Numbered from the stretch's first letter, positions 16,770 to 57,050 are shown. The stretch is 64,000 nucleotides of DNA from Bacteroidota bacterium (GCA_020444275.1 JAHLLG010000002.1:404266-468265); one strand, 5' to 3'. The notes: generated by a model from the letters alone, not told the origin. Made by a program: numbers and translations.

Positions 16770-16849
16770 TGAACATTACCTGTATTTAATTTGTCAATTA
16801 TTTTGTTATTTTTGAGCACTGAATCACCGAACCAATAATTGTTTAATAG

Positions 16850-38859: not shown

Positions 38860-39495
38860 TTACTTAATTATTCTATTAATGATTTCGGGTTTAAAACTAA
38901 TATTATCTTTTTTATTTTCCTTATTTTTTTCAACTAAAAACAGCATTGCACAATAATCGCCATCAATATAATCTACCCAACCTGTTATGCATGCATCAAT
39001 TTTATTTTTATCCATCAACTCATTAACATATTCACATACAAACTCAGGATCGAATTGTTTGGCAATGAAACAGGTATTTTCACCCTGAAATTTATTGCGA
39101 ATACAGATTTCACCAATCATCACATTAGGTAGGGTATAAACAAATACCGCAGGACTGGGAAAGTAGTTTGATTTATCTTTTATGGTTTCGTAATACTTTT
39201 GATCAGTATCCAGTGAAGAGTGTGCATTTTGCAAAATAACGCCTACTTTGGTCGGATCCAGGTTTTTAAGGTGCTCATTACTCTGTAGAACAATTTCTGA
39301 AGCAACAAAAGCAAGCTTACAAAGATTATCCATTTTAAAATACTTTGGATATTTTATTTCGTAGTGCTTGTATACTGATTTCAGAAAAGCTCCAAATTCA
39401 TTTTTATCCGGATCAGTATATGCCGTTTCTCCATCAACAATTACTTGATGTGGCTTTATAATACAATATTTAGATATACTATTTTCCATAATCAT
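38860..39495 (-). CDS. Small KS-N-terminal-like protein typical of aryl-polyene loci
   Basis: 211 aa with no catalytic triad recognisable. Its position between an ACP and a KS is as in APE clusters. The call is mainly by context. Confidence 0.5.
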   Translation of the reverse strand: MIMENSISKYCIIKPHQVIVDGETAYTDPDKNEFGAFLKSVYKHYEIKYPKYFKMDNLCKLAFVASEIVLQSNEHLKNLDPTKVGVILQNAHSSLDTDQKYYETIKDKSNYFPSPAVFVYTLPNVMIGEICIRNKFQGENTCFIAKQFDPEFVCEYVNELMDKNKIDACITGWVDYIDGDYCAMLFLVEKNKENKKDNISFKPEIINRIIK

Positions 39496-41342: not shown

Positions 41343-42626
41343 TTATTTTGTTTTTGTGTAATTATTATAAACAACTGCTATGATGAGCATAATAACAAAA
41401 AACAGCAAAAGCTTTGCACTTTCGGCAAGTATTACCGAAATATCGCCACCACGAAGAAATATATCGTAAAAGCCATTTAATCCCCAATGCAGAGGCGAAA
41501 ACTGGCTAATAATTCTAATGTTAGCTGGCATTACATAGGTTGGAACCCAAATTCCTCCCAAGGCAGCAAAAATAATGATAGAAACTGATCCAAATGTTGC
41601 GGCTTGCTCGTGACTGGTTGCAATGGTTCCTAAAGTAACACCATATCCAGTTGCTGCTAATCCGGAAGATAATGCCATAATACCAAGTGCAATTTTATGC
41701 GGACCAATTTCTAACTGAGGCAGGCCTAATAACGGCATTATATAAACTCCTACTGCAAGCATTAAAATAAGCTGAATAAAGGCAACACCAAGAAATATAA
41801 ATATTTTACTGAACATTACGGTAATAAATGATCCCGGCATGGTCTTTAGTCTGAATGCACTTCCATCTTCGCGTTCTTTAATGATATTTCCTGCCAGTGG
41901 AAGAACTATAAAAAACATGGCAAACATGGTCCAGGCGGGAACATTATGCTGAACTGAATTGGGAACGATATTATCTTCCTTTGTTGATGCATATACCTGT
42001 TCATACTTTATGGTTTCAAAGCTTTCAAATTCAATAGGATTTTGGCCGGGCATTAACTGGGCCATGGCTTCCGAGAAATTCTTAAAAAACATCTCAATTT
42101 CCAGTTGTGATGTGAATTCTTTAAGTGAGCTCATCACCATATTCTTGAATGAAACACTTGTTGCCGGATCGATATAAATAGTTACATTAATTGTGCTCTT
42201 TTTTGTTCTTTTTTTAAGTCCGGGAACATTGAATGATTTGAACGATTTATTGATAAGTGCATCAACGTTTCCACGAATAGCGTCCGTAGCTCTTTCCGGT
42301 ATAATTACACCGATTTTGTATTTTCCCCGGGCAACTAATTCTCTAGCTTTTTCTTCGGTAATTTTTTCACCATCAATTTCTTCAACAATATCGAAGTAAT
42401 CTGATGCATATAAGCCTTCGCTAATGGCTTCCCCTAAGCTATCTTTATCATTATTTACCAGGACCATCGAAATATCAACTTCATTTACTGTCCTGAACGT
42501 TGCATCCTGAATCAAGGTCATGATAATAATGAGCACCAAAGGCATTAAAAATAAGATAATTAAACCTGCACGGTCTCTTATTAAAACTAAAAACTCTTTA
42601 TATATTGATGATAATAATCGTATCAT
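41343..42626 (-). CDS. ABC-2 type transporter permease
   Basis: 427 aa. N-terminal TM, large extracytoplasmic loop, then 5 C-terminal TM helices. It is adjacent to the ABC ATPase. Confidence 0.8.
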   Translation of the reverse strand: MIRLLSSIYKEFLVLIRDRAGLIILFLMPLVLIIIMTLIQDATFRTVNEVDISMVLVNNDKDSLGEAISEGLYASDYFDIVEEIDGEKITEEKARELVARGKYKIGVIIPERATDAIRGNVDALINKSFKSFNVPGLKKRTKKSTINVTIYIDPATSVSFKNMVMSSLKEFTSQLEIEMFFKNFSEAMAQLMPGQNPIEFESFETIKYEQVYASTKEDNIVPNSVQHNVPAWTMFAMFFIVLPLAGNIIKEREDGSAFRLKTMPGSFITVMFSKIFIFLGVAFIQLILMLAVGVYIMPLLGLPQLEIGPHKIALGIMALSSGLAATGYGVTLGTIATSHEQAATFGSVSIIIFAALGGIWVPTYVMPANIRIISQFSPLHWGLNGFYDIFLRGGDISVILAESAKLLLFFVIMLIIAVVYNNYTKTK

Positions 42627-42637: not shown

Positions 42638-43399
42638 TTATTCGTCGCGTAATGCTCTTCCTGTTATATGTAAGAAAATACTTTCCAAATCGGTGTATTC
42701 CGGTTTGCTATTGACCAACTCTTTTGGTCTGCCAACTGTAAGAATTTCTCCTTTATCAATAATGGCTACTTTGGAACAAAAGTTTTCAGCCTCTTCCATG
42801 TAATGCGAAGTGTAAATAATTGTTGTTCCTTCTTTATTGATTGTTCTGAGATGATCTAATATGACCGTTCTGGATTGTACATCAACACCAACAGTTGGTT
42901 CATCTAAATAGATAATTTTTGGTTTATGAAGAATACCTGCTATCAGGTTGATTCTTCTTTTCATTCCTCCGGAAAAAGTTTTAATCCGACGATTGGCATT
43001 TTTTTCCAAACCAAACAGTTCAAGGCATTCGTTTATTCGACTCTTAAGTTCCTTACCTTTTAATCCGTACATGTGTCCAAAGAACGTAAGATTTTCTCTG
43101 GCGGTTAATAAAGGGTACAAGGCTATTTCCTGCGGAACTACACCAATTATATTTTTTATTTTTTCTCTTGAATGCTGGTATTCCATTCCATCAATAAAAA
43201 CATTGCCTGATGTTGGCCCAAATAGCCCGCATAAGATGGAAATTGTGGTTGTCTTACCAGCACCATTGGGGCCAAGTAAACCATATATTTCGCCTTTGTC
43301 AATATTCAAACTGATATTATCAATGGCAGGAACATTTGAGCCTTTATAGTACTTGGTAAGATATTTTAATTCAATAATATGATTATTTTCCTGCATCAC
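42638..43399 (-). CDS. ABC transporter ATP-binding protein
   Basis: 'GLLGPNGAGKTT', 'FSGGMKRRINL' and 'IIYLDEPTVGVD'. Confidence 0.9.
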   Translation of the reverse strand: MMQENNHIIELKYLTKYYKGSNVPAIDNISLNIDKGEIYGLLGPNGAGKTTTISILCGLFGPTSGNVFIDGMEYQHSREKIKNIIGVVPQEIALYPLLTARENLTFFGHMYGLKGKELKSRINECLELFGLEKNANRRIKTFSGGMKRRINLIAGILHKPKIIYLDEPTVGVDVQSRTVILDHLRTINKEGTTIIYTSHYMEEAENFCSKVAIIDKGEILTVGRPKELVNSKPEYTDLESIFLHITGRALRDE

Positions 43400-44399
43400 T
43401 TATTAATTTCTTTAGTTCAGTAAAAAATCTTTCTTCATCGTCGGCTATTTCCAGCATTAAATTAGCCACTGTATTGTAACCATCCGGGTCGGATGATCGG
43501 CCTTTGCATGTTTGTGCTGCCAATGAAGAAAATTTTCTCCATTTATCACCAATATTAGTCATCTCTTTTGAGATTTCGAAATATCTAGGATCATCAAATA
43601 CTTCAGAAACCTCCTGAAGGAATGCTGCATAAATAAAGCGAAATCCGGCTCCTCCTGTTCCAATTTCTTCGAGCATTCTTACCAACTGAGCCAGGTAGGA
43701 AGCAGCCTTACGAGCACCTAATTTATCGGGCCATTTGCGAACTCTTTTTGAGAGATACCGGATACCTTTAACTCCAAACAACGGAACAGGAATGGTTAAC
43801 ATCCAGTCGCATGTTTGTTTAATTCCTTTTAAAATGGCTGGCTTTAATTCAATATCTTCAGGGATATCGATTGGGTAATACATCTTACCATTCGGACTTA
43901 GCGGTCCTTTTGCAAATCGCGCCTTTTTAAGTTCTTGGTGAGTTAGGGTAGTTGGATATTCCATAACCGGATCACTAATATGATACGTTCCGTTTTCTTT
44001 TCCAAAAACTGTTAAGTTATGTGCATTAAAGTGAAAACGATAAGCAGGAGGAAAGTAGGATAAATGATAAACTCCGGTTTGAACACCAACAGGTAGTTTC
44101 TTTTCAAGAACCTTATCGAGCTCGTCCATTGCCCTCTTGGGTTGTTTCCGAAAGGTTTGCTTTTTCATTTTAATTCCCAGGCGTTTTGCTGCCCGGGCAA
44201 AAATCATTCCCGGAACAGGACGGAACGAGGCTAAAGGAATGCCATTTACTTTTACAAAAGGCATATAAGCAAAAAAGTAGCCACTGCCAATTCCGAAAAT
44301 CATCGCTTCGCTTAAGTTTAAACCGTGATACCGTAATAAGCTGGAGATTACTCCATTTTCACAGTGTCCGGCTGGTATATGTTCGAAATCAAGTTTCAT
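43383..44399 (-). CDS. BtrH N-terminal-domain (papain-like fold) protein, DUF4872-type C-terminus
   Basis: 338 aa. N-terminal 'AGHCENGVISSLL' (candidate nucleophile Cys) and 'FNAHNLTVFG' (candidate His). It is a paralog of 52205..53218. Confidence 0.65.
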   Translation of the reverse strand: MKLDFEHIPAGHCENGVISSLLRYHGLNLSEAMIFGIGSGYFFAYMPFVKVNGIPLASFRPVPGMIFARAAKRLGIKMKKQTFRKQPKRAMDELDKVLEKKLPVGVQTGVYHLSYFPPAYRFHFNAHNLTVFGKENGTYHISDPVMEYPTTLTHQELKKARFAKGPLSPNGKMYYPIDIPEDIELKPAILKGIKQTCDWMLTIPVPLFGVKGIRYLSKRVRKWPDKLGARKAASYLAQLVRMLEEIGTGGAGFRFIYAAFLQEVSEVFDDPRYFEISKEMTNIGDKWRKFSSLAAQTCKGRSSDPDGYNTVANLMLEIADDEERFFTELKKLISDAGK

Positions 44400-44403
44400 T
44401 TAT

Positions 44404-44805
44404 CTATTCTGGTTTAAAATTTACTAATTCGTTTACACTAATATTGAATACTTTTGCGTACTTATCTAGTTGTTCTGATTTTAATTTCTTGAATGCTTTG
44501 GGTTTTAAATGTCTTTTAACTTTCCATTTGGAAAGCTCAACATAATCGGCTAATAAAGTGACATTCATCTGGTTTTTAGCCATAAAGTGCATAATAGGGC
44601 TGGCTTTTCCCGCTTTTATTTTTTCATCAGCCTCATCAACTTGCTCCTGGATATCTTCCCAGGCTAATTCATTTACAATATTTTTTGGTTCCCAACCTTT
44701 GCTGAACGTTTTTACATATTTACCATCTTTATCAACAGCATATTGCACTTCGCGGGTAACACCTCCGGTTATTCCCTCATCTTGTGGTACTTTATCTTTT
44801 TCCAT
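44404..44805 (-). CDS. Small HTH-containing protein (XRE-like), cluster regulator candidate
   Basis: 133 aa. The C-terminal 'MNVTLLADYVELSKWKVKRHLK...LDKYAKVFNISVNELVNF' resembles an XRE HTH. It is a paralog of 51708..52205. Confidence 0.5.
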   Translation of the reverse strand: MEKDKVPQDEGITGGVTREVQYAVDKDGKYVKTFSKGWEPKNIVNELAWEDIQEQVDEADEKIKAGKASPIMHFMAKNQMNVTLLADYVELSKWKVKRHLKPKAFKKLKSEQLDKYAKVFNISVNELVNFKPE

Positions 44806-44831
44806 AGCAATGTGATTAAGTTAGGTTGGAG

Positions 44832-45278
44832 CTAATTTTCTTTTTCATCCAGAAAGATTTTCATCGTACAATCAGCAATTAATTCATTATCGCATGTAAT
44901 CTTTCCATTAATGAGTGTTGTGTTAAAAACTTTGTGTTCAACATTTATTTCTGTGATAATACTTTTACCAATTTCCGGTAGTTTATGAATCGTTAGTTTC
45001 TGAACTGCACCAATGTATCCTGTTGGCACTTCTTTGTCGGCATTTCTATATTCAAATCCAACACCTACAGCAGCTGTTTGAGCTATATTTTCAATTAATC
45101 CGGGTTCTTGTAAAACTCCGTCGCTGCAAAAAATATTTTCTTTTTTTATCTCAAAACTGCCAATGGTCTGACCACCTTCTGCTTTATGCAATTTCTCTAC
45201 CATAACCATTGGTGCTCTTTGAGGGATAAATTTTAAAATATCTTCTCCCGTAGCAATTACATTGTCATATATTCCCAT
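44832..45278 (-). CDS. Hotdog-fold dehydratase (FabZ-like, APE type)
   Basis: 'ILKFIPQRAPMVMVEKL' corresponds to the FabZ 'LPHRYPFLLVD' N-terminal motif with His replaced by Gln. 148 aa. Confidence 0.6.
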   Translation of the reverse strand: MGIYDNVIATGEDILKFIPQRAPMVMVEKLHKAEGGQTIGSFEIKKENIFCSDGVLQEPGLIENIAQTAAVGVGFEYRNADKEVPTGYIGAVQKLTIHKLPEIGKSIITEINVEHKVFNTTLINGKITCDNELIADCTMKIFLDEKEN

Positions 45279-46615
45279 AATGGTCCTTTTTTTCCTCGCT
45301 GTCTAAGCTTGTTGGTAATTATTGTGGTATCTTCATCAGGAAATACCCAACGTTTTCTTGTTTTATATGCCCTTTCTTTTAGTGTGTCGTAATTTACATC
45401 TTTGGAAAGGTAATATTTTGGTTCTAATAAGTTATCATTTGCATCTATAAAACCTTCCTGTATAGCATATTCCTGAAGTTTAGTTCCGGGATATATTCGC
45501 ATTCCCACAAAGGTAAAGAATACCGAATTATCAATATGTTTCGAATTTTCAAAGGTTTCATCTACAGTTTCATCAGTTTCTCCGTAACCTCCTGTAATTA
45601 AAAAGTGAGCAAAATCGATATCCAATTTATTACACAATGCAGATTTTTCAATAACATCCTGAACTGTAAAATTCTTTCCGTAGGTTTTAAGGCACTTCTC
45701 AGAAATTGCCTCTGTTCCAAATTCGACATGCTGTAAACCCGATTTCTTTAATATCTTAAGTAAGTTTTCATCCAGATTTTTAAAGGTGAAATAGCCTCCC
45801 CAATGAATTTTAATTCCACTGGCAATTATTTTTTCTGCAAGCTCGTAGTTGTAGTCATTCTTAATATTAAAAACCGAATCGGTAAAGAAAACATAATCGA
45901 TACCCTTTTGGTAGTACAGTTTTTTTAATGTTTCAACAATTTTATCCGTATTTAAGGTACGCACCTTTTTACCTTCAATTAAAGGGTAGGTGCAATAAAT
46001 GCAGCTATATGGACAACCACGCTTTGTTTGAACATTTAGCATCCCGCTTTTCTGCCAGTAAAAATCAATCAAATCTTTATCAAAATCTAAATCCAGATCA
46101 CTGAAATAACTTTCGTTTTTATTGAAAACACATTGACCGTTTTTTTTGTAAACTAGTCTGCTTATTCCTGTAAAATCCTCGTTGTTATCCAGTGTATTAA
46201 TTAAGTTCAGGATAGTTTGTTCTCCTTCTCCGTATACCCCGAAATCAGGATTTAATCTGTCAAACATCAGTTCCGGAAAAATTGAAAAACCTGAACCACC
46301 AACAATAATTTTAGCATCTGATACTATACGCAGATGATCAATTACATTTTTGTAATGCGTAACAAATTCTTCGCGGTTATATGAGTTAACATCATCAATG
46401 TTTCTGAACGAAACACCAATATATTTAGGGCTATACTCTTTAGTAAGTGATTGCAATTCTTCAACGTTGGTAAAGTTGAGATCAACAACCTTTATTTCGT
46501 AGTTGGGTAATCGGTCTTGTAAATATGTTGTAATATAAGATAATCCAATAGGATAAACCGGATAAGGATTTACATGTTGATTTGCCGAAATAAATAGTAT
46601 CTTGTTTTCTTTCAT
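45257..46615 (-). CDS. B12-binding-domain radical SAM protein
   Basis: N-terminal flavodoxin-like B12-binding region. The CX3CX2C motif is 'GCPYSCIYCTYP'. 452 aa. Confidence 0.85.
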   Translation of the reverse strand: MKENKILFISANQHVNPYPVYPIGLSYITTYLQDRLPNYEIKVVDLNFTNVEELQSLTKEYSPKYIGVSFRNIDDVNSYNREEFVTHYKNVIDHLRIVSDAKIIVGGSGFSIFPELMFDRLNPDFGVYGEGEQTILNLINTLDNNEDFTGISRLVYKKNGQCVFNKNESYFSDLDLDFDKDLIDFYWQKSGMLNVQTKRGCPYSCIYCTYPLIEGKKVRTLNTDKIVETLKKLYYQKGIDYVFFTDSVFNIKNDYNYELAEKIIASGIKIHWGGYFTFKNLDENLLKILKKSGLQHVEFGTEAISEKCLKTYGKNFTVQDVIEKSALCNKLDIDFAHFLITGGYGETDETVDETFENSKHIDNSVFFTFVGMRIYPGTKLQEYAIQEGFIDANDNLLEPKYYLSKDVNYDTLKERAYKTRKRWVFPDEDTTIITNKLRQRGKKGPLWEYMTM

Positions 46616-46618
46616 AAC

Positions 46619-47515
46619 TTACTCTTCTTTCCAAAACTGATAGTAGTTGAACCACTGGTTTGGATACATTCTTAAAATTCGTTCGAACTCTTTTGCATAT
46701 TTCTTAGCAAAATGCTCCAATTCCTGTTCTTGTTTTTCAGGATCTCTATAACGCTTTACAGTTTCTGGCGCTGAAGCATAAAAATGATAGTGTGTTTTTG
46801 TTTCTTTCATGGCAAATGCAAATGTAACCGGAACGCCAAACCGGGCTGCCAAATAAAACGGACCTGTAGGAAACATTGCCTTTTTACCCATGAAATCAAC
46901 TTCAACAACTTTACTTTCTTCAATAAACCGATCACCAGCCATGGCTATAAGTTCTTTATTTATTAGAGCTTCGCTTATAGGTATAATGTGCGAAAAATCA
47001 TTCTGAATTGCAATTATGTTTACATCACGATTAACCATTACATCGGAGAGATATTTTTTTATATTTTGATGCTCTGCATCGAGCATTAATACGTTAATTT
47101 TTGTATTTAACCTTTCCAGTAACTGTCCTGCAATTTCAAAATTCCCGATATGCGCGTTTACAATAATTCCGCCTGTTTTTCCCTGAGCCATTTCACGTAA
47201 ATAGTTTTCTCCATCGAAATTGTAGGAGAATTTTCCTTTTAATCCTCCCAGAATTGCAATTTTATCGAGTAGTATTTGTCCAAAAACAAAATAGTTTTTA
47301 TAAACACTCCACTTAGCTTTAAGAGGGGAGTATTTTAAAATCTTATGAAAGTAATAATATGTTGATTCTGAACTTTTTTTAGAAAACAGGAAATAATAGA
47401 AAGCTACAAAAATGAGAATAAAATAGGCAAAAGATAATCCCAGATGTTTTAATGTAAAAACAAATATTTTATATCCTAATACGTTTCCGCGGGACTTTCC
47501 TTTCCATGATGGCAT
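46619..47515 (-). CDS. LpxL/HtrB-like (lysophospholipid/lipid A) acyltransferase
   Basis: N-terminal TM helix and the 'NAHIGNFE' HX4(D/E) motif. 298 aa. Confidence 0.75.
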   Translation of the reverse strand: MPSWKGKSRGNVLGYKIFVFTLKHLGLSFAYFILIFVAFYYFLFSKKSSESTYYYFHKILKYSPLKAKWSVYKNYFVFGQILLDKIAILGGLKGKFSYNFDGENYLREMAQGKTGGIIVNAHIGNFEIAGQLLERLNTKINVLMLDAEHQNIKKYLSDVMVNRDVNIIAIQNDFSHIIPISEALINKELIAMAGDRFIEESKVVEVDFMGKKAMFPTGPFYLAARFGVPVTFAFAMKETKTHYHFYASAPETVKRYRDPEKQEQELEHFAKKYAKEFERILRMYPNQWFNYYQFWKEE

Positions 47516-47548
47516 GTAAAACCCTCCAATTTGGTTTTAACAGGGGAT

Positions 47549-47797
47549 TTAATTCTCTTGTGCTCGTTTTATAATATAGTCATAAAAATCTTGAAGTGAT
47601 TTTATATTTGCAAAATCTTCGCCTTTTACTTTAAAACCAAAATTCTTTTCGATAATCACAACAAGGTCAACATAATCGAGGCTGTCAATTTCCAAGGTTT
47701 CTTTTAAACTAGCTGAGGGAATAAGTTGATCTTCTTCCAGTTCGAATTCATCAATTAAGAAGTCATTCACTTTATTAATTATCTCCTGATTCTCCAT
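47549..47797 (-). CDS. Acyl carrier protein
   Basis: 82 aa, with 'LEIDSLDYVDLVVIIE'. Confidence 0.85.
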   Translation of the reverse strand: MENQEIINKVNDFLIDEFELEEDQLIPSASLKETLEIDSLDYVDLVVIIEKNFGFKVKGEDFANIKSLQDFYDYIIKRAQEN

Positions 47798-47824
47798 ATT
47801 TCCAATAATCTCCCAGTTAAATAC

Positions 47825-49048
47825 TTATTTTATTTTTTTTACAATCAATGATGAGTTTGTACCACCAAACCCAAAAGAGTTTGACAAAAATATATCAATA
47901 TTATGATTTTTTATAGTTTCGACTGCAATATTTAATTTTGCTGAATATTCATCGGGATTTTCAAAATTAATATTTGGTGCAACATACGAGTTTTGCATCA
48001 TTAATATGGAATAAATGATCTCGCTTGCACCTCCCATCCACATTTCATGTCCGGTCATCGATTTTGTTGAGCTAACATAAGGTGTTTTAGCTCCAAAAAC
48101 CTTACTAATAGCTTGTGCTTCATTTAAGTCGCCAACCGGTGTGGCTGTTGCATGTGCATTAATATAATCAATATCTTTTGCGTTGAGTTTGGCATCTTTA
48201 AGTGCCATTTCCAATGATTTTGCAGGACCTTCTACGTTAGGAACTGAAATATGATCGCCATTGGATGAGAATCCATAACCTATTACTTCGGCAATAATCG
48301 GCGCTCCTCTTTTAATAGCCGATTCATAACTTTCAAGAATTACTGTTGCAGCTCCTCCACTTGGAACTAAACCATCCCGATCTCGATCAAACGGGCGACA
48401 AGCTTTTTGAGGTTCATTTTCACGAATAGAGAATGCTCCTAAACCATCGAAGCTTCCCATGGAGTGAAAGTTAATTTCTTGACCTCCGCCACATATGATA
48501 ACGTCCTGTAATCCACTTTGTATAAAATGGTATCCCATGCCAATGGCATGCGATCCGCTCGCACAGGCTGCACTTATTGTTAAGTTAATACCTCGTAATC
48601 TGAATATGGTTGATAAATTCATTGTAATTGTAGAATTCATCGACTGGAAAATTGCACCTGAACCTAATAAAGCAGTATCCTTTTTTTCTTTTAGTAAATC
48701 ATAAGAATCTACAACTGATCTGGCAGAACTATCGTTACCGTATAGAATTCCAACATCATTTTTATCCAAGAAGTCATCGTCAATTTTGGCCTGATTTAGA
48801 GCCTCAACAGTTGCAATATAGGCATATTCACCTTCTTCTGCCATTCCCACACGTTGCCGTCTCTTTAATAGTCCTTTTAGGTTTGGTTTTTCAAGAACAC
48901 CTGTTAATCCTGATCTAAAGCCAAGCTCTTTTCTTTCTTGTTCAAAACCGATTCCTGATTTTCCCAAATAAAGAGAATTGTTAACTTCTTCAATATTTTT
49001 GCCGATCGTGGAATAGATTCCCATTCCTGTGATTACCACTCTGTTCAT
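47825..49048 (-). CDS. Beta-ketoacyl-ACP synthase (KS)
   Basis: 'ISAACASGSHAIG', 'INAHATATPVGD' and 'STKSMTGHEMWMGG'. Confidence 0.9.
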   Translation of the reverse strand: MNRVVITGMGIYSTIGKNIEEVNNSLYLGKSGIGFEQERKELGFRSGLTGVLEKPNLKGLLKRRQRVGMAEEGEYAYIATVEALNQAKIDDDFLDKNDVGILYGNDSSARSVVDSYDLLKEKKDTALLGSGAIFQSMNSTITMNLSTIFRLRGINLTISAACASGSHAIGMGYHFIQSGLQDVIICGGGQEINFHSMGSFDGLGAFSIRENEPQKACRPFDRDRDGLVPSGGAATVILESYESAIKRGAPIIAEVIGYGFSSNGDHISVPNVEGPAKSLEMALKDAKLNAKDIDYINAHATATPVGDLNEAQAISKVFGAKTPYVSSTKSMTGHEMWMGGASEIIYSILMMQNSYVAPNINFENPDEYSAKLNIAVETIKNHNIDIFLSNSFGFGGTNSSLIVKKIK

Positions 49049-49074
49049 AGGTCTGTATTACAGTGTTTTACATG

Positions 49075-49803
49075 TTATGTATATAGTCCTCCATTTACAG
49101 ATATTACTTCACCGGTAACGTAAGATGCATTTGGTGAAGCTAAAAATGACACTACATGAGCAACTTCTTCCGCTTTACCGAATCTGCTCATCGGAATTAT
49201 TCGTTTGTAATCTTTCTCCTCCAGTTCCTGTGTCATGTCTGTTTTAATAAATCCCGGGGCAACACAATTTACTGTAACATTTTTCTTGGCAACTTCCTGA
49301 GCTAAAGCTTTACTTGCTGCAATAACTCCTCCCTTAGCAGCAGAATAATTGGTTTGGCCCGGTAAACCTTTAATACCAGATAATGAAACTACATTAACAA
49401 TTCTTCCATATTTGTTAACAATCATATCTTGTACTAAATGTTTTGTAATATAATAAAAACTATCGAGATTTGTATTTAATACATCCTTCCAGTCTTCATC
49501 TTTCATCCACATAATAAGCGCATCTTTTCTAATACCGGCATTATTTACAAGCACCTCGATTACAGCATCCGGATTCTTTTCTTTCCATTGATTAATTGCT
49601 GCTTTTATTCCTTCAGGATCAGAAACATCAAATGGCATTAACTCACCTGAACCTCCGTTTTCTTTTATTTGGTTCAGGGTGTTTTGTGCTTCTTCGATAT
49701 TACTTCTGTAGTTGATTAATACATGGTATCCCAACTTTGATATTTCAAGGCATATAGCCTTGCCAATTCCTCTTGATCCTCCTGTAACTAATGCAAATTT
49801 CAT
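49075..49803 (-). CDS. 3-oxoacyl-ACP reductase (FabG-like SDR)
   Basis: 'VTGGSRGIGKAI', 'NNAGI' and the 'YSAAKGG' catalytic Tyr-x3-Lys. Confidence 0.9.
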   Translation of the reverse strand: MKFALVTGGSRGIGKAICLEISKLGYHVLINYRSNIEEAQNTLNQIKENGGSGELMPFDVSDPEGIKAAINQWKEKNPDAVIEVLVNNAGIRKDALIMWMKDEDWKDVLNTNLDSFYYITKHLVQDMIVNKYGRIVNVVSLSGIKGLPGQTNYSAAKGGVIAASKALAQEVAKKNVTVNCVAPGFIKTDMTQELEEKDYKRIIPMSRFGKAEEVAHVVSFLASPNASYVTGEVISVNGGLYT

Positions 49804-49810
49804 TTTGATA

Positions 49811-51352
49811 TTATTTTAAAATATTTGGCTTATTTTCAACTAAATAGTTGTTAATATTTTCGATATGCTTATATAATGGTTCGTCTTTTGTGATTGTTGG
49901 CACTAATTTTCTTAACTCATGATATACTTCTTTTCCTGTTGCAGATAATCTATCTTTAAATTTCATGTAATCTACTATCTGTAACAGACTTAAAAACTTA
50001 ATGGCTAAAACCTGAAATGAATTCTCGATTACTTTTTTTGTAATTAATGCTGCGTTTGTTCCCATACTTACAATATCCTGGTTATCACCATTATTAGGTA
50101 TACTGTGAACGTACATAGGGTTTGACAACATTTGACTCTCTGCTGTTGTGCTGGTAGCAGTAAATTGAGCAGCTTGTAATCCAAGGTCAAGACCAACAAC
50201 TCCTAAATTTGCAAATGGAGGGAATTTTTCATTAATCTTGTTATTATACAGGTAATTAATTTGTCGTTCAACCAACATGGTAAGCTTAGTAATAACAATT
50301 TTTAACTTATCCATCTCAAGCGAAACATAATCACCATGGAAATTTCCACCATGAAGTACGTCGATGTTTTCATTTTCGATGATCGGATTATCGTTCACTG
50401 AGTTGATTTCATTAATCAAAACTTCTTCCACATGATTAAGTGTTTCGTAAACCGGCCCTAAAACTTGTGGAACACATCGCAGTGAATAATACTCCTGAAC
50501 TTTAACCTTTATAACACCTACACCAATATTATTATCGTAGAATAGATCTGCTCTTTTTTGAATCAAATCACTTGATTCAACAATTTTACGCATTTGCTCT
50601 GCAATAACATTTTGTCCCTTATGAAGTTTTACCTGGTTAAGTTCTTTTGAAAAATGATCATCTACAGACTCAACAACTTCATTGATCATGGTTGATGAAA
50701 TTAATGCCCAGTTTAAAAGATTTTTGGCATGAAGTAGATTAATTAATCCTATACCTGTCATACATGATGTTCCATTGATTAAAGCCAACCCTTCTCTCAA
50801 GTGGATTTGTAATGGTTCAAGGTTATTTGCCTTAAATACTTCTTTTGCAGGACGATACTTTCCATCGTAAAAGATTTCACCTTCTCCAATCAAATTTAGC
50901 GCCAGATGCGCTAATTGCACTAGGTCGCCACTGGCTCCAACTCCACCATGTTCAAAAATCTTTGGATAAATATCTCTGTTAATGAACTCTTTTAGCAAGT
51001 AGATAGCATCAGTATGAACACCGGAATATCCACGCATAAAAGTATTCAACCGTCCAATCATTAATGCTTTTACATAGATGTTTGGCAGAGGATTTCCTGT
51101 ACCCGCAGCATGACTGCGAATAAGGTTGTACTGAAGTAGTTTTTGGTCCTCGTCGCTAATCTTGTATTGAGCCATTGGACCAAAGCATGTATTAATGCCG
51201 TATATTACTTTATCCTTGGAAAAATCTTCTAGAAAATTATAATTCTTTTCAACTTTATGTAATGATTCAGAATCTAAGTCTATTTTTTCTCCTTCATAAA
51301 GTGCTTTGTAAAAATCATTTAGATTGAGATTCTTACCCCCTAATATTATCAT
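49811..51352 (-). CDS. MIO-dependent aromatic amino acid ammonia-lyase (tyrosine ammonia-lyase of the flexirubin type)
   Basis: 'GGVGASGDLVQLAH' (Ala-Ser-Gly MIO triad). Long stretches resemble my recollection of the Flavobacterium johnsoniae TAL ('QYNLIRSH..GTG', 'NGTS.MTGIG', 'QEYYSLRCVPQ.LGP', 'TATSTTAESQMLSNPMYVHSIPNN'). Confidence 0.9.
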   Translation of the reverse strand: MIILGGKNLNLNDFYKALYEGEKIDLDSESLHKVEKNYNFLEDFSKDKVIYGINTCFGPMAQYKISDEDQKLLQYNLIRSHAAGTGNPLPNIYVKALMIGRLNTFMRGYSGVHTDAIYLLKEFINRDIYPKIFEHGGVGASGDLVQLAHLALNLIGEGEIFYDGKYRPAKEVFKANNLEPLQIHLREGLALINGTSCMTGIGLINLLHAKNLLNWALISSTMINEVVESVDDHFSKELNQVKLHKGQNVIAEQMRKIVESSDLIQKRADLFYDNNIGVGVIKVKVQEYYSLRCVPQVLGPVYETLNHVEEVLINEINSVNDNPIIENENIDVLHGGNFHGDYVSLEMDKLKIVITKLTMLVERQINYLYNNKINEKFPPFANLGVVGLDLGLQAAQFTATSTTAESQMLSNPMYVHSIPNNGDNQDIVSMGTNAALITKKVIENSFQVLAIKFLSLLQIVDYMKFKDRLSATGKEVYHELRKLVPTITKDEPLYKHIENINNYLVENKPNILK

Positions 51353-51707
51353 TTCAGTTCTTTGGTTAAGCGTTAAAGTGGTTTAAACCTATAAATTTTT
51401 TATGCTCTTTTTTGTAAAAATGCAAATTTAATAAATACTTTGAATAAACCTTAGTTACTTTTTTGTTTTAATCAACATTTTTATAAATAATCAAAAATCT
51501 ATGATAAATGTAATGTAATGCTCAAAGAACACTTGAGCTGTCATATGAAGGTCCTAAAATCTTAAACAATCAATGTTACGTTTTGTTTACTAAATATTTA
51601 TTTTGGCATAAATTTATTTTGATATAATTTAGTAGGCTTAAATTTTGATTGAATGCTTTGATTATTTGGAACGAAAGCAAAGAGTTATACACTTCAATTT
51701 TGTTATA
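51353..51707. promoter_or_regulatory. Divergent intergenic control region between the APE core operon and the accessory sub-cluster
   Basis: 355-nt AT-rich spacer between divergent gene starts. It contains a GCTCAA-(7 nt)-TTGAGC inverted repeat at 51520-51538, and an HTH gene lies next to it. No promoter was mapped. Confidence 0.3.
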
Positions 51708-52205
51708 ATGAAAGAAAAAGACGCTTATGTCGATTTTGAACCACAGCAACTTATAATGTATGTTGAAAAGGAAGATGGAACCTATGGTCCAATTCAAACT
51801 GGTTCATATATATCAAAAAATTATTTGGATGATTTTTGGGAAAAGACTGTAAGACTTAGAAGCATGTTGCTCGATAAACTTAAAAAGAATGAAATTACAT
51901 CGATATATTTTTATAAATTAATTCACGATTTTAATGATGTTGAACTATCGCGCAGAACAGGAATATCCGTGCGGAGAGTAAAAAAGCATCAGAAAGTGGA
52001 TTGTTTTAAAAGGGCTCGCTTGTCAGATCTCCGGAAATATGCTTATGCGTTTGATATTCCTGTATCTAATTTACTTCAAACGATTGTTGTGGGAGAAGAA
52101 GAGCAAAATCCAGATATAGAAAGTGAAAAGCGTCAAGTAAAAGTAAAGCAATCGAGAACGGAAAATCCATTTTTAGTTATTACCAAAATAGATCTTAATA
52201 CATAA
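51708..52205 (+). CDS. Small HTH-containing protein (XRE-like), paralog of 44404..44805
   Basis: 'DVELSRRTGISVRRVKKHQK...LSDLRKYAYAFDIPVSNLLQ'. I prefer the ATG at 51708 ('MKEKDAYV') by comparison with the paralog; the ORF track starts at 51645. The stop overlaps the next start (TAATG). Confidence 0.55.
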   Translation: MKEKDAYVDFEPQQLIMYVEKEDGTYGPIQTGSYISKNYLDDFWEKTVRLRSMLLDKLKKNEITSIYFYKLIHDFNDVELSRRTGISVRRVKKHQKVDCFKRARLSDLRKYAYAFDIPVSNLLQTIVVGEEEQNPDIESEKRQVKVKQSRTENPFLVITKIDLNT

Positions 52206-53218
52206 TGATAATAGATTCTTTTAAACACAATATGGCGGCTCACTGTGAGTCGGGTACATTAACCGCTTTATTAAAACATAAAGGTTTAGAGATAACCGAA
52301 CCTATGATATTTGGTTTAGGAAGCGGTTTATACTTCGGGTATCTTAGTCATACGCCAAATTTAAGTTTTCCGATGTTTATTTTAAGAACGAAGCCTGGAA
52401 AACTTCGCAAGAAGATTGCAAAAAGAACTGATATAAAATTTAATACTCAGAGGTTTAAAAGCGAAGATAAAGCAGAACAGGAATTAGATGAACTAATAAG
52501 TAAGGGTATTCCTGTAGCTTGTCAGGTGGATTTTTACTACATGGATTATATTCCACAGTGGGAGAGAGTTCATGCTAACATTCACTTTATTACGGTTGTT
52601 GGAAAAGAGGGCGATGAATATCTTGTTAGTGATAGTTATTTTCCAAAATTAGCGCGTATTCACAAAGATAAATTAAGAAAAGCTCGATTTGCAGGAGGCT
52701 ATTTAGCACCAAAAGGTTTTCGATATTTTATTGAATCTGTTCCGGAAACTATTAATTATGAAAAATTAATACCAGTTTCAATAAAAAACACCATTAATAA
52801 TATGATCGGAGTGCAACCTCCTTTTATTGGGGTGCGTGGTATTAGAACTTTTGCAAAAAAATTGCAGGGTTGGCCTAAAATTACACGAGATATTGATCAC
52901 CTTTCACACGAAGTGATGAAAATTAATGTATTTTTGGAAGACCAGGGAACCGGTGGTGGAGGATTTCGATATTTATATGCAACATTCCTTAGACAATGTG
53001 CTGATAAAATATCAAATAAGGAGTTAGAAGAGATGTCGAAAAAGATGATGGAAATCGGCGATGGTTGGCGAAATATTTCTTACTTTGCAGCCAAAATAGG
53101 AAAGAACAGAGATTTAGGAGCTGATAAACTTAAGGAGCTTGGAGATATGATTAACGAAAGAGCTGATGCCGAAGAAGCATTTTATAAGGAGTTGAAAGTA
53201 GTTATAAATAATATTTAA
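52205..53218 (+). CDS. BtrH N-terminal-domain (papain-like fold) protein, DUF4872-type C-terminus
   Basis: 337 aa, with 'AAHCESGTLTALL' and 'HANIHFITVVG'. It is colinear with 43383..44399 along its whole length, including 'GTGG.GFR..YA.FL'. Confidence 0.65.
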   Translation: MIIDSFKHNMAAHCESGTLTALLKHKGLEITEPMIFGLGSGLYFGYLSHTPNLSFPMFILRTKPGKLRKKIAKRTDIKFNTQRFKSEDKAEQELDELISKGIPVACQVDFYYMDYIPQWERVHANIHFITVVGKEGDEYLVSDSYFPKLARIHKDKLRKARFAGGYLAPKGFRYFIESVPETINYEKLIPVSIKNTINNMIGVQPPFIGVRGIRTFAKKLQGWPKITRDIDHLSHEVMKINVFLEDQGTGGGGFRYLYATFLRQCADKISNKELEEMSKKMMEIGDGWRNISYFAAKIGKNRDLGADKLKELGDMINERADAEEAFYKELKVVINNI

Positions 53219-53231: not shown

Positions 53232-53507
53232 ATGGGAGAACATAATGGTACAGAGTTGAAGGCGGATATTAAAAAGATGATTATTGAAACATTGAATATG
53301 CAAGATATTACGCCCGAAGATATAGATGATGATTTACCGCTTTTTGGTGGTGATAATACTTTAGGTCTTGATTCTATTGATGCAATTGAGTTGGTAATGT
53401 CTGTTCAGCGCCAGTTCAAAGTACGTATTGATGATCAGAATTTAGCCCGTGAGGTGTTAAAAGATGTAAATTCTATTGCAGAATTTATTCAAAGTAAGGC
53501 TGAGTAA
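53232..53507 (+). CDS. Acyl carrier protein
   Basis: 91 aa, with 'LGLDSIDAIELVMSVQ'. Confidence 0.85.
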   Translation: MGEHNGTELKADIKKMIIETLNMQDITPEDIDDDLPLFGGDNTLGLDSIDAIELVMSVQRQFKVRIDDQNLAREVLKDVNSIAEFIQSKAE

Positions 53508-53545: not shown

Positions 53546-54634
53546 ATGAAAAGTGCTTACCTGATAGCAGGTATGAGACTATCCAGATTCATAAAACTTA
53601 TGATGAAAAATGGAATGTCTGTTCGTCCAAAATTCTTGGTTCGCTTTTTATTTCTTTTCCAGAATGGTATCTGGGCTTCAATTTTTTATCGCAAGGAGAA
53701 ATCAATCTATAAAGATCTTATTAAAAAACACAGATTACCCGATGATCCAATTATTATTGTAGGACATTGGAGAACTGGTAGTACTTTTTTGCACCAACTG
53801 TTAGCTCTTGATCCAAATATTGTAACTTCTAATGTTTTTCAGGGGTCAATACCTGATAGTTTCCTGACTTCCAGAAAGTCGTATGAGCCAATAATGGGCA
53901 GAGCGCTTAAAGGTACTCGCCCAATGGATCAGGTTAAGTTGAGTATGGACGAACCATTGGAAGATGAATATGCCTTATTTCGTTTATGCAGCTATTCACC
54001 ACTCGAAGGAGTTATTTTTCCTAAACAGGACGGATATTTTTTAAATCACTTTCCGGGATTTTTACCTGAAGATGAAAAATTAGAACAATGGAAAAGTGCA
54101 CTTAAATATTTTTATAAAAAATTAACTATAAACAACAACTCAAGAATATTAATTAAAAATCCTTTTCATTCTTTTCGAATTAAAGTTTTAAACGAAATAT
54201 TCCCCAATGCAAAGTATATTCATATCATCAGGCACCCACATAAAGTGGTGCCATCTACTATTCGCATGTGGGATATAGTAGGATCCCAAAATGCAATGAA
54301 TACCAAATGGAGAAAGCCTACAGCTGGCGAGGTAAGTGATGTTTTTAATAAAATGATTCTGCAAATAGAAAAAGATTTTAAAGGTCTTTCTGCAGAAAGG
54401 TATTATGAGTTGAAGTTTGAAGATTTGGAGAAAAATCCAATAAACGAGATAAAGGCAATCTATAAGCATTTAAATGTTCAATTTTCTGATGAATTTGAGC
54501 AACAAATATTACAATTTTTAAATTCGGTAAAAGGGTACAAAAAAAATAAATATACAATTCCGGAATCGGATAAACTGGAAATCAATAACATCCTGAAATC
54601 ATGGATGCAAGCGAAAGATTATAGTTTGGATTAG
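53546..54634 (+). CDS. PAPS-dependent sulfotransferase family protein
   Basis: 5'-PSB loop 'VGHWRTGSTFLHQLL' and a 3'-PB-like 'IIRHPHKVVPST'. 362 aa. Confidence 0.8.
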   Translation: MKSAYLIAGMRLSRFIKLMMKNGMSVRPKFLVRFLFLFQNGIWASIFYRKEKSIYKDLIKKHRLPDDPIIIVGHWRTGSTFLHQLLALDPNIVTSNVFQGSIPDSFLTSRKSYEPIMGRALKGTRPMDQVKLSMDEPLEDEYALFRLCSYSPLEGVIFPKQDGYFLNHFPGFLPEDEKLEQWKSALKYFYKKLTINNNSRILIKNPFHSFRIKVLNEIFPNAKYIHIIRHPHKVVPSTIRMWDIVGSQNAMNTKWRKPTAGEVSDVFNKMILQIEKDFKGLSAERYYELKFEDLEKNPINEIKAIYKHLNVQFSDEFEQQILQFLNSVKGYKKNKYTIPESDKLEINNILKSWMQAKDYSLD

Positions 54635-54686: not shown

Positions 54687-55961
54687 ATGAAATTTCAATT
54701 AATATTTCCCAAGTGGAGAAAGCTGGAAGGACAAACAACATTTAATTTACCACCACATGGTGCGATTGTATTTGCATCAACCATTCCTGAAGAGTTTGAA
54801 GTTGAATTTATAGATGAAAATCTTGAGGAAATGAGATTCGATGATGATGTTGATTTTGTGGGAATATCCATGTTGTTAACAACACAAATAAAACGAGGTT
54901 GGGCAATAGCCGACGAGTATAGAAAAAGAGGCAAGAAAGTTATATTTGGTGGTATTGCAACCATGCTGCATGCCGAAGAAACGATGGAACATGCCGATAG
55001 TGTTTTCCTTGGAGAAGCTGAAGGACACATGGATCAGGTTTTCAAAGATTTCAAGAATGGAGAATTGAAGAAATTTTATAATTTCATGAATGATCTTCCG
55101 CCGATTGAAATTGTTGGTCCTGCACGAAGAGAGCTTTACAACAGAGATTTGTATTATCATAAAGGAGTTCAAATGGTTGACTTATTCCATGCTTCGCGTG
55201 GTTGTCGCTATAGTTGTTATCCTTGTGCAGTTTCTTATTTAGGTGGTCGTCAGTTTCGACCAAGACCCATTGATAAATCCATTGAAGAGCTGGAGACAAT
55301 AGATAATAACAGACTATTTATTGTAGATAATTCGCTGGCACAAGATACTCAATGGGAAAAGGATCTGTTTAAGGCAATGATTCCACTTAAGAAAAAATGG
55401 TGTAGTCATACAATTGAAGATAAGCCAGAGGTTCTTGATTTGGCAGCGCAAGCTGGTGCATGGTATGTTTACCAGGCTGTTTTTGATACTTCGGACTATA
55501 TTAAAAATCGTGTAAAACGATATCATGATTACGGAATTGGAGTAGAAGGTACTATTTTATTAGGTCTAGATAACCAAACAGAGGATGATATTAAGCGATT
55601 AATTGATTTCTTACTGGAGATTGATCTTGACCTGGCCGAATTTACAGTATTGGCACCATTCCCACATACTAAAGCCTGGACCGATTTAAGAAAACAAAAC
55701 AGAATTTTCGATTACAACTGGGATAACTACAATGCTGGTCAGGTGGTTTATCACCCAAAACACATGAGTGCTGAGCGTTTACAAGAGTTGTATCAGTATG
55801 CATGGGATACATTCTATAAAGATGAAACGCAGGAAGAAAAGATGTTTAAACTCTTGAAAAAGGTTGTTTCAAGAGAAATGGAAGATGGAACTTTCAGAAA
55901 GCGCCGACAGGATCTTTCAAAATCCAGCTTTGGAAAAAATGTTAAACATAAAATTGCATAA
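54687..55961 (+). CDS. B12-binding-domain radical SAM protein
   Basis: N-terminal B12-binding-like region. CX3CX2C motif 'GCRYSCYPCAV'. 424 aa. Confidence 0.85.
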   Translation: MKFQLIFPKWRKLEGQTTFNLPPHGAIVFASTIPEEFEVEFIDENLEEMRFDDDVDFVGISMLLTTQIKRGWAIADEYRKRGKKVIFGGIATMLHAEETMEHADSVFLGEAEGHMDQVFKDFKNGELKKFYNFMNDLPPIEIVGPARRELYNRDLYYHKGVQMVDLFHASRGCRYSCYPCAVSYLGGRQFRPRPIDKSIEELETIDNNRLFIVDNSLAQDTQWEKDLFKAMIPLKKKWCSHTIEDKPEVLDLAAQAGAWYVYQAVFDTSDYIKNRVKRYHDYGIGVEGTILLGLDNQTEDDIKRLIDFLLEIDLDLAEFTVLAPFPHTKAWTDLRKQNRIFDYNWDNYNAGQVVYHPKHMSAERLQELYQYAWDTFYKDETQEEKMFKLLKKVVSREMEDGTFRKRRQDLSKSSFGKNVKHKIA

Positions 55962-55975: not shown

Positions 55976-56353
55976 ATGGAAACAAAAACAAGTAAATATC
56001 AGGATCAATTGTATCATTTTAAGGGATTATGGGATCTTCCATCAGTTTGTGGGTTGAAAATTGTAAAAAAAGCTGATCAAGCAATTATCATTGCTACTGA
56101 TTTGTTTGATGAAAACCCCGGAACTTCTATTACGGAATGGAATACAAAGTTAGCGAAAGAGCTGTGCGATAATCATGATATAAATTACCAGGATTTAATT
56201 TATATTGAGCATACCCCAAATAAGGATACCAAGTTATCGTTTAACAGAGAAACATTTTATAAAGTTAATTTTGATATTAGCGACAATGGATTTGATAATC
56301 CACAGTGGGAGGAGTTAACAAAAAGTGAAGTAGATAAATTATTAACAGAATAA
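55976..56353 (+). CDS. Hypothetical protein
   Basis: 125-aa ORF, tightly packed in the operon. No motif recognised. Confidence 0.5.
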   Translation: METKTSKYQDQLYHFKGLWDLPSVCGLKIVKKADQAIIIATDLFDENPGTSITEWNTKLAKELCDNHDINYQDLIYIEHTPNKDTKLSFNRETFYKVNFDISDNGFDNPQWEELTKSEVDKLLTE

Positions 56354-56363: not shown

Positions 56364-56666
56364 ATGGCTAAAATTACTGATAACACAAGAAATGAGGTTA
56401 AAGAAATCGTTCTGGATTTTTTTGCAGAGGAGTGTGAGGTTGATGCAGAAGAGATATCAGAAGATGCAAATATTATTAGTGATCTGGATGGTGATTCTTT
56501 AATGTTTCTTGAGCTTATTGAAATATTTAAAAAGAAATATAATTTAAATATAGAATTAAAAACAATTGGTAAATATGCGGTTAAGCATCCGGTAAAAACT
56601 ATTGGAGAGCTTATCGATATGCAAATGCTTATCATTGAGCACGAAAATAATATTTTGGATTTGTAA
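56364..56666 (+). CDS. Acyl carrier protein (divergent)
   Basis: 100 aa, with 'SDLDGDSLMFLELIEIF' as an ACP-like DSL motif. Confidence 0.75.
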   Translation: MAKITDNTRNEVKEIVLDFFAEECEVDAEEISEDANIISDLDGDSLMFLELIEIFKKKYNLNIELKTIGKYAVKHPVKTIGELIDMQMLIIEHENNILDL

Positions 56667-56681: not shown

Positions 56682-57050
56682 ATGATATTAAGTTGTGGTA
56701 TTGATATTGAAGAGATAGAACGATTTAATAAGCACTACTTTCACAAAGGAAAGTTGTCTGATTTAATGTACGATATTTTTACTACTAAGGAGATAGATAA
56801 TTTGTCTGTTTTCGGTAAAGAAGCCTTTTTAAAAGGCTTTTGTTTTAAGGAGGCATTCTATAAGGCCATAAATAATACAAATGTAGGTTTCTTGGATATT
56901 CAGATTATTTTTAGCAGTGAAAAAAGTTTTGAAATTTTAAAGTCGAAAGAACTTGATAATATCTTAAATAGTTTGGCCATAAAAGAGATTCAGGTAGAAT
57001 TTCAAACAGAGAAACAATACATCATTTCAAAGGTTTTATTAGTACACTAA
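56682..57050 (+). CDS. AcpS-type 4'-phosphopantetheinyl transferase
   Basis: 'CGIDIEEIERF', 'FTTKE' and 'CFKEAFYKAI'. Both AcpS Mg-ligand positions (Asp, Glu) are conserved. Confidence 0.75.
   Translation: MILSCGIDIEEIERFNKHYFHKGKLSDLMYDIFTTKEIDNLSVFGKEAFLKGFCFKEAFYKAINNTNVGFLDIQIIFSSEKSFEILKSKELDNILNSLAIKEIQVEFQTEKQYIISKVLLVH

Follow-up and report, generated by a model that had tools for sequence, protein, structure and literature searches.

Why does a single biosynthetic cluster carry the same two-gene unit twice, once on either side of its core? The question is raised by a 64,000-nucleotide stretch of DNA from a Bacteroidota bacterium (GCA_020444275.1, JAHLLG010000002.1:404266-468265), referred to here in its full length as the window. 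Each unit consists of a small gene for a protein with an XRE-type helix-turn-helix (HTH) domain, followed by a gene for a BtrH-like protein. The two products, DarG and DarH, belong to families already named in NCBIfam (NF053536, NF053545 and NF053550). The left pair, DarG1-DarH1, lies on the minus strand (44404..44805 and 43383..44399) and the right pair, DarG2-DarH2, on the plus strand (51708..52205 and 52205..53218). The surrounding genes form a flexirubin-type aryl-polyene/lipid cluster, as identified by profile searches, with a G+C content of about 33% and its nearest relatives among metagenome-assembled genomes (MAGs) of the Bacteroidales and Marinilabiliales. The explanation towards which we lean is that the two diverged copies serve different branches, each tethered to a carrier protein, of an aryl-polyene/lipid pathway resembling that of flexirubin. 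The left copy is an unremarkable family member in a setting devoid of DarA and canonical DarB, and the right copy is a member of a divergent clade with different wiring, of which no description was found in the literature searched.

The pairs were first picked out in a first-pass annotation as paralogous HTH plus BtrH-like modules with the same gene order, and all of the coordinates and open reading frames (ORFs) given there were confirmed. Pairwise alignment bears out the paralogy for the large proteins (DarH1 and DarH2 are 36–37% identical over 332 residues, E 2e-77) as well as for the small ones (23–26% over 109 residues, E 2e-9). The DarG1 and DarG2 clades also align with each other in hhalign with 99.7% probability (E 2.5e-26) over 113 columns that include the N-terminal part. 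The junctions are as described, the left genes being separated by 4 nt (TAG-ATAA-ATG) and the right ones overlapping in TAATG at 52203-52207. The ORF finder listed the small right ORF from a TTG at 51645, but the ATG at 51708 was taken as the start, since its homologues are 165–166 residues long and likewise open with MKEKD. Both large proteins (338 and 337 residues) have BtrH_N and DUF4872 domains (E 1e-41 to 6e-60), and the motifs originally seen in them, HCE(S/N)G and NxH, turn out to be invariant in the family (H13, C14, E15 and G17; N125 and H127), DarH1 having HCENG and NAH. With 461.6 and 324.7 bits, respectively, DarH1 and DarH2 both pass the 300-bit cut-off of NF053550, “BtrH-related acyltransferase DarH” (DarH_acyl).

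The two pairs do have different partners, as had been claimed. DarH1 is followed on the same strand by a DarI-like ATP-binding cassette (ABC) transporter ATPase (42638..43399; Pfam ABC_tran, NCBIfam drrA-like), whose first 17 nt are shared with the end of DarH1, and by a DarJ-like ABC-2 permease (41343..42626; Pfam ABC2_membrane_3). DarH2 is followed on the plus strand by an acyl carrier protein (ACP) gene that serves it (53232..53507; Pfam PP-binding, charge −11.4 at pH 7) and by a sulfotransferase gene (53546..54634; Pfam Sulfotransfer_3 and Sulfotransfer_1), the fourth of its cassette.

A scan for DarH with one genome per species gave 582 relatives, from which 80 loci were fetched; exact look-ups added four more. 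The resulting 84 loci were read with our own ORF calls and with hidden Markov models built from the window proteins. In 83 of them, spread over several phyla, a DarG-like ORF is found directly upstream of DarH on the same strand, and the exception has a truncated DarH. The tight coupling first noticed in the window is thus general. Among 76 non-redundant pairs, the DarG-DarH genes overlap or are separated by no more than 16 nt in 67, the commonest junction lengths being −4, −1 and 0 nt, and none of the 84 loci has the pair outside the same biosynthetic context.

Two types can be told apart among these loci. Type 1 occurs in Flavobacterium, Maribacter, Aequorivita, Sphingobacteriia and some Desulfobacterota and Campylobacterota, and has the order ketosynthase (KS)-ACP-LpxL-[DarA-like]-DarB-FabZ-FabZ-DarG-DarH-ABC ATPase-permease-thioesterase (TE)-KS-ACP. 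A canonical DarB (566–667 bits, cut-off 550) lies within 6 kb of the pair in 32 of 37 type-1 loci, and an ABC ATPase follows DarH in 28 of them; the order of ATPase and permease is kept. Type 2 is found in MAGs of Bacteroidales, Lentimicrobiaceae, Prolixibacteraceae, Fibrobacterota, Spirochaetota and Chlorobiota, with the order [ABC ATPase-permease]-DarG-DarH-ACP-sulfotransferase-[B12 radical SAM-125-aa protein], where SAM stands for S-adenosylmethionine. An ACP follows DarH in 33 of 39 type-2 loci, the sulfotransferase comes directly after the ACP in nearly all, and a canonical DarA or DarB was found near the type-2 pair in none of the 39. Some type-2 loci add an AMP-ligase (it follows the cassette in L003, L087 and L088), an O-methyltransferase or a CarboxypepD_reg outer-membrane protein.

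The left pair of the window is of type 1 and the right pair of type 2. This double arrangement recurs in L001 and L002, with a DarG2 homologue of about 72% identity, and L005 and L006 agree with it as far as their flanks extend. In three further loci (L010, L016 and L017), a type-2 DarG-DarH-ACP-sulfotransferase cassette directly follows the LpxL/FabZ genes of the aryl-polyene operon, the usual place of type 1, which suggests that the two types may fill equivalent positions or substitute for each other. A type-1 DarG-DarH beside radical SAM genes was also encountered in a record labelled “MAG: Klebsiella pneumoniae” (L059, CAMDRJ010000013.1), perhaps through a binning error, perhaps because the host is unusual.

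What might DarH do in these two settings? It is most likely a papain-fold Cys-His-Asp thiotemplated transacylase of the CtaG/BtrH class, as judged from its conserved residues and predicted fold. The AlphaFold2 model of DarH2 (mean predicted local distance difference test score, pLDDT, 90.1; predicted template modeling score 0.89) folds into a papain-like α/β domain at the N terminus and a helical one at the C terminus. Its best Foldseek match is AziU3 from the AziU3/U2 complex (E 2e-11, template modeling score (TM) ~0.65). CtaG (E ~1e-9, TM 0.70/0.76) and CcbD, including its complex with a peptidyl carrier protein domain (TM ~0.65), are also matched, and C39-like peptidases and PCAT1 are weak neighbors only. 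Of the two options named in the first-pass annotation, a papain-fold transferase or a peptidase, the transferase agrees with these matches and with the intact Cys-His-Asp residues. The residues in question, C14, H127 and D143, are invariant in 56 DarH sequences of both types and have the same spacing as the triad of CtaG (Cys11/His128/Asp144), a papain-like ligase that uses a ping-pong acyl-enzyme mechanism between carrier proteins; BtrH and AsbE, its structural homologues, use a donor bound to a carrier and an acceptor that is free (PMC12865890). By sequence, the DarH profile matches CtaG marginally (E 0.003, ~15% identity), and the DarH2 sequence alone gave no useful match to chains in the PDB, so that CtaG was reached only by profile and fold searches.

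Since the invariant triad residues are spaced as in CtaG, DarH would be expected to take an acyl group from a phosphopantetheinyl carrier-protein thioester onto Cys14, and the acyl-Cys14 form would then hand the group to a nucleophilic site of the acceptor. Resorcinol is suggested as the acceptor of type-1 DarH by DarA/DarB and the ABC exporter, its constant companions. DarH1 probably couples a final acyl transfer, which in flexirubin producers would form the ester between aryl-polyene acid and resorcinol, to export.

In the type-2 cassette, the sulfotransferase provides a further hint. Its best solved relatives by sequence are the sulfotransferase domains of CurM (4gbm, E 3.2e-9) and of an olefin synthase (4gox, 1.6e-7), with mycobacterial sulfotransferases next. 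The CurM and olefin-synthase domains sulfate an ACP-bound β-hydroxyacyl chain, and the sulfate serves as the leaving group in offloading. The DarG2-DarH2-ACP-sulfotransferase unit probably handles a second acyl chain on its own ACP, either sulfated or activated by sulfation.

Several points weigh against this division of labor. The joining of polyene and resorcinol has been attributed to another protein, FlxW, of the N-terminal nucleophile (Ntn) hydrolase type, as a proposal without evidence (PMC3992019), and a FlxW relative is present in the window at 25458..27146. Neither DarA nor a canonical DarB was found in the window. The similarity of the sulfotransferase to that of CurM is modest and covers about 140 residues. 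No functional study of Fjoh_1097/1098 or of the corresponding Chitinophaga pinensis genes was found in the literature.

The role of DarG is a more delicate matter. In DarG1 (133 residues), an N-terminal hairpin region and a linker helix precede the XRE-type HTH, which is at the C terminus. The first-pass annotation had placed a C-terminal XRE-like HTH in both small proteins; both do have the HTH, but in DarG2 (165 residues) it is central (residues 65–122), preceded by an N-terminal hairpin and a long helix and followed by a β extension of about 40 residues that is specific to type-2 DarG. The DarG2 model has a mean pLDDT of 79.5, and above 95 in the five-helix XRE domain. In the family alignment, an N-terminal Y-(A/V)-x-x-x-x-G-x-Y, modeled as a β hairpin, precedes the long helix, and the best-conserved positions of the HTH are S-P-x-x-Y-x-M, L-A, V-K-(R/K)-H and Y-A-x-x-F. 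DarG1 passes NF053536 (DarG_fam, cut-off 70 bits) with 164.6 bits and Pfam HTH_26 (cut-off 22 bits) with 26.5, and lies just under the 170-bit cut-off of NF053545 (flexirubin_DarG) with 163.3; DarG2 is below all three (41.1, 17.7 and 43.5). The homologues of DarG2 are 165–170-residue “hypothetical proteins” of Bacteroidales MAGs. A search with the DarG profile yielded 488 representatives among 1.84 billion (E ≤1e-3), almost all of them stand-alone proteins of 130–170 residues.

The first-pass annotation offered two readings, a dedicated partner or separate regulation of each branch. On balance, we predict that DarG is an obligate or dedicated partner of DarH, which seems more likely than that it is a classical regulator of the operon. 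The partner reading is favored by the coupling to darH, the position of darG inside operons, the short gap ahead of darG1, the absence of a shared operator from the promoter regions scanned, the basic character of the HTH against acidic ACPs, and the example of AziU3, the closest structural neighbor of DarH2, which works as a two-protein complex on a sulfated substrate. Of 73 loci, 47 have the gene in mid-operon, with another gene of its strand no more than 50 nt upstream; of 35 type-1 loci, 30 do. The HTH of the two window DarGs carries a charge of +7 to +8, against a mean of +4.0 for the family, and the four ACPs of the cluster carry −11 to −13. The task of DarG could be, for example, that of a basic subunit for docking a very acidic ACP or for specificity, or else that of a local sensor. 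A bolder version can be offered tentatively: DarG would be no transcription factor but an HTH-fold subunit whose basic recognition surface docks the ACP onto DarH or sets the acceptor specificity, making the pair a two-component thiotemplated transacylase. On this view, the type-2 unit would tailor or offload lipids in a sulfate-dependent way, would be widespread among anaerobic members of the Bacteroidota, Fibrobacterota, Spirochaetota and Chlorobiota and, in the window, would share its scaffold with the flexirubin-type module. We regard this fuller scheme as doubtful.

The strongest competitor is that DarG is an ordinary XRE transcription factor, each copy sensing an intermediate of its own pathway and regulating its own branch, while the adjacency to DarH reflects operon history. 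The fold is that of a genuine XRE domain: Foldseek aligns the DarG2 HTH with the C-proteins C.BclI and C.AhdI and with SinR, HipB, DdrO, ClgR and 434 Cro at 1.5–2.5 Å over about 60 residues, and it is structurally indistinguishable from DNA-binding XRE regulators. Its best-conserved polar patch, the recognition helix V-K-R/K-H, would suit DNA binding too, the HTH is basic, and some sources label the homologues HTH transcriptional regulators. Fusions of DarG to DarH are absent from the best 150 of the 488 matches. All of this speaks for a regulator and tells against a dedicated partner. Long matches to the DarG profile, considered as possible fusions, proved to be generic multi-HTH repeat proteins, plus one protein of 446 residues (P0340) with an N-terminal radical SAM domain and a C-terminal DarG-like HTH. 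The latter is the only DarG fusion among those 150 and could be real or due to a missed stop codon.

The genomic position of darG is divided between the two copies. DarG2-DarH2 opens the plus-strand operon, and darG2 is the first gene after a divergent intergenic region of 355 nt (51353..51707) that it shares with flxA. Two blocks of this region, at ~51400-51445 and 51590-51632, are conserved in an alignment with L001, L005 and L006, as might suit a regulator. The reverse complement of the first block contains TAAATTTG, which we take to match the Bacteroidetes −7 consensus TAnnTTTG, and because of this resemblance the block may simply be the flxA promoter on the minus strand. Neither block was found elsewhere in the window. 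No notable palindrome was seen in 51340..51720, where repeat and promoter scans gave nothing beyond chance, and the intergenic region has no Rfam match, to a riboswitch or other RNA, at E values up to 1. DarG1-DarH1, in contrast, is internal to the long minus-strand operon begun by flxA, with darG1 located 26 nt 3′ of a FabZ/ApeP-like gene and 4 nt ahead of DarH1. Those 26 nt (44806..44831), once put forward as a target for electrophoretic mobility shift assays, are too short to hold a promoter.

If DarG were a regulator with a near-invariant recognition helix, a common operator would be expected, yet an exact-match scan of 47 inferred promoter regions gave no shared inverted repeat above shuffled controls, nor was one found elsewhere in the window; palindrome and k-mer scans of the same 47 regions returned only a promoter-like −7 motif. 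Further points against regulation are the frequent mid-operon position of darG, the strict stop-start coupling to one enzyme gene in several phyla and both cassette types, and a conserved N-terminal region without a known ligand-binding fold. We therefore consider the regulator unlikely, if by no means far-fetched, and retain the dedicated partner as the preferred role of DarG.

A second alternative is that DarG-DarH is a repressor/protease switch, in which DarH would cleave DarG upon a signal and thereby de-repress the pathway. As in ImmR/ImmA, DdrO/IrrE and CapH/CapP, an XRE HTH gene adjoins a peptidase-fold gene; DdrO and CapH are among the structural neighbors of DarG, and C39-like peptidases and PCAT1 are among the weak ones of DarH. 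However, the strong neighbors of DarH are the carrier-dependent transacylases CtaG and CcbD, along with AziU3, rather than peptidases, and DarH2 is followed by a dedicated ACP in most of its loci. Unlike the proteases of ImmR/ImmA-type switches, DarH has a cysteine papain fold nearest to transacylases and is tied to an ACP; the known XRE repressor/peptidase switches use metallopeptidases. A Gly-Gly in DarG1 (residues 14–15), considered as a C39-type cleavage site, is not conserved in the family. Such a switch is improbable.

It is more improbable still that the pairs are toxin–antitoxin or anti-phage defense modules lodged in the cluster by chance. The overlapping, HTH-first layout of two genes does resemble a type II toxin–antitoxin system, and DarG has weak generic HTH matches in PADLOC (E 1e-4 to 6e-4), but DarH has no PADLOC match at all, the pair is vertically conserved with the cluster, and every one of the surveyed loci shows it in the same biosynthetic context.

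Where, then, did the two copies come from? Flavobacterium-type loci have a DarH with 58–60% identity to DarH1, and the type-2 DarH of Chlorobiota and Lentimicrobiaceae MAGs has 58% identity to DarH2. A recent inverted duplication within the cluster itself, for which the location of the pairs on opposite strands, one to each side of the core, might be cited, can practically be discarded on the blastn search and on these identities, which far exceed those between the copies, as there is no DNA-level repeat and each copy retains the partners typical of its own clade. The “mirror-image duplication” of the first-pass annotation thus survives as a matter of orientation and not as a duplication of DNA, a single 45-nt patch at 78% being all that blastn finds against the reverse complement. 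With no DNA similarity between them and each closer to its counterparts in other genomes, the two copies are, to judge from sequence, anciently diverged paralogues from two different cassettes that have been brought together. Within each type, the pairwise identities of DarG and DarH are correlated (r 0.94 and 0.85, reached in 0 of 2000 permutations), although this partly mirrors a common species history and to that extent weakens the case for the pair as a unit.

The core between the two pairs is read from flxA on the minus strand. FlxA, a tyrosine ammonia-lyase (49811..51352; 819.5 bits, cut-off 700), is followed by a ketoreductase (49075..49803), a KS (47825..49048), an ACP (47549..47797), an LpxL-like acyltransferase (46619..47515), a B12-radical SAM protein (45257..46615) and the FabZ/ApeP-like protein (44832..45278), and then by DarG1. 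The radical SAM protein matches TIGR04072, “lipid biosynthesis B12-binding/radical SAM protein” (rSAM_ladder_B12, 422.7 bits, cut-off 360), and occupies the slot between LpxL and FabZ that holds a DarA-like gene and DarB in canonical flexirubin loci. On the plus strand, the type-2 cassette is followed by two genes that often accompany it, one for a B12-binding radical SAM protein (54687..55961) and one for a 125-residue protein with no assigned family (55976..56353). A second ACP (56364..56666), a phosphopantetheinyl transferase (56682..57050) and a FabD-like acyltransferase (57050..57940) close the operon, and these last three have the same order in L001, L005 and L006.

Elsewhere in the cluster are genes for LolA, LolB2_flexi and an AMP-ligase, in addition to the FlxW-like Ntn-hydrolase. 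A 1288-residue protein encoded on the minus strand at 28634..32500 combines an MMPL transporter with a lysophospholipid-type acyltransferase and a SAM methyltransferase in one chain; the same trifunctional protein appears in flexirubin clusters (PMC12968099). Between a KS and an ACP on the minus strand lies a 211-residue ORF (38860..39495) with a faint FabF-like match (E 1e-5), which may be a truncated chain-length-factor-like KS. Tandem desulfoferrodoxin-domain genes (58830..59207 and 59244..59621, minus strand, 125 residues each) adjoin a B12-radical SAM gene (59741..61081) and a gene for a CarboxypepD_reg/Plug outer-membrane protein (61160..63514), and L001 has one desulfoferrodoxin-domain gene at the matching place. 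The desulfoferrodoxin genes and the several B12-radical SAM genes point to an anaerobic host.

A second lipid-type sub-cluster is found on the plus strand at 11083..18067. It includes two enoyl-CoA hydratases (12037..12774 and 13123..13773), a KS III (13784..14911), a 3-hydroxyacyl-CoA dehydrogenase (15759..16769) and a FabF (16850..18067). The KS III is a distant relative of StlD/DarB (126 and 98.6 bits, far under the cut-offs), with 24–27.6% identity to DarB (27.6% for 13796..14446). In two loci, L085 and L086, the type-2 cassette lies amid two enoyl-CoA hydratases, a KS III, a 3-hydroxyacyl-CoA dehydrogenase and a 4HBT thioesterase, with several B12-radical SAM enzymes, LolA and an outer-membrane protein around it. 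The window holds the same gene set, split between 11–18 kb and 57–63.5 kb. Because these genes flank the cassette in L085 and L086, the sub-cluster and the type-2 cassette of the window are probably one split system. DarB-type condensation uses enoyl and β-ketoacyl thioesters. The hydratases and the dehydrogenase could supply such substrates, and it may be speculated that the type-2 system is an anaerobic counterpart of the dialkylresorcinol branch.

Flexirubin-type pigments have a classic use as chemotaxonomic markers of the Bacteroidota, and for the joining of their aryl-polyene acid and resorcinol parts only FlxW has been suggested as the enzyme (PMC3992019). DarH, invariably present, with its CtaG-like triad intact and coupled to an exporter, is a concrete candidate for this ester-forming step. 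If DarG proves to be a subunit, an XRE fold would be tied to a biosynthetic transacylase across several phyla, which would be unusual. The type-2 cassette, found in many uncultured anaerobes, may point to new sulfated or sulfate-activated lipids. The window, with both cassettes present and DarA and canonical DarB absent, offers a natural test case for the contribution of each pair.

Counterparts of the left pair have been recorded before. The dar cluster of C. pinensis includes darG, a hypothetical protein, darH, with a BtrH N-terminal domain, and the ABC genes darI and darJ, with no function assigned; the equivalents in Flavobacterium johnsoniae are Fjoh_1098 to Fjoh_1095 (PMC12968099). In Azoarcus BH72, darD is a conserved hypothetical and darE a BtrH-like peptidase, followed by an ABC ATPase (PMC3949708). 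Azoarcus darD and darE are probably DarG and DarH, equated here by gene order and not by sequence. In both organisms, the pair sits in the dar cluster and not in the polyene cluster (PMC12968099, PMC3949708). A literature search on DUF4872 and on flexirubin esterification found nothing.

Compared with the known flexirubin/dialkylresorcinol clusters, the left copy is in familiar surroundings: DarG-DarH-ABC ATPase-permease-TE-KS-ACP is the arrangement in at least 28 Flavobacterium-type loci. The window differs in that DarA/DarB, which are next to the pair in flexirubin clusters, are replaced by a radical SAM gene, and the right pair differs in having an ACP and a sulfotransferase instead of the ABC exporter. 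Unlike canonical dar loci, the window also has both cassette types in one cluster.

With CtaG, BtrH and AsbE, DarH shares the papain-like N-terminal and helical C-terminal domains, the triad spacing and an adjacent carrier-protein gene. Those enzymes, however, lack the DUF4872-type C-terminal domain and form amides, whereas O-acylation in a lipid/polyene pathway is expected of DarH, and none of them has been reported with an HTH partner.

AziU3/AziU2 of the azinomycin pathway (PDB 7WUW, 7WUX and 8GS1) is a two-protein complex whose substrate is O-sulfated and from which it eliminates the sulfate to close an aziridine ring (Kurosawa et al. 2022, as cited in PMC11168924 and PMC12865890). Like DarG2-DarH2 with its sulfotransferase, it is a two-protein unit linked to sulfation. 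It is unlike DarH in that sulfate elimination is functionally unrelated to acyl transfer according to PMC12865890, and AziU2 is absent from the listed Foldseek neighbors of DarG.

The ACP-sulfotransferase-TE arrangement of CurM and olefin synthase resembles the type-2 cassette in that the sulfotransferase comes directly after the ACP and a thioester-handling enzyme is at hand. There, the three are domains of one chain and the TE is an α/β-hydrolase; here, they are separate proteins and the fold is papain-like. Together, the CurM-like sulfotransferase and the parallel with AziU3/U2 suggest, as a lead only, that the type-2 cassette is a unit for handling a sulfated, carrier-bound intermediate.

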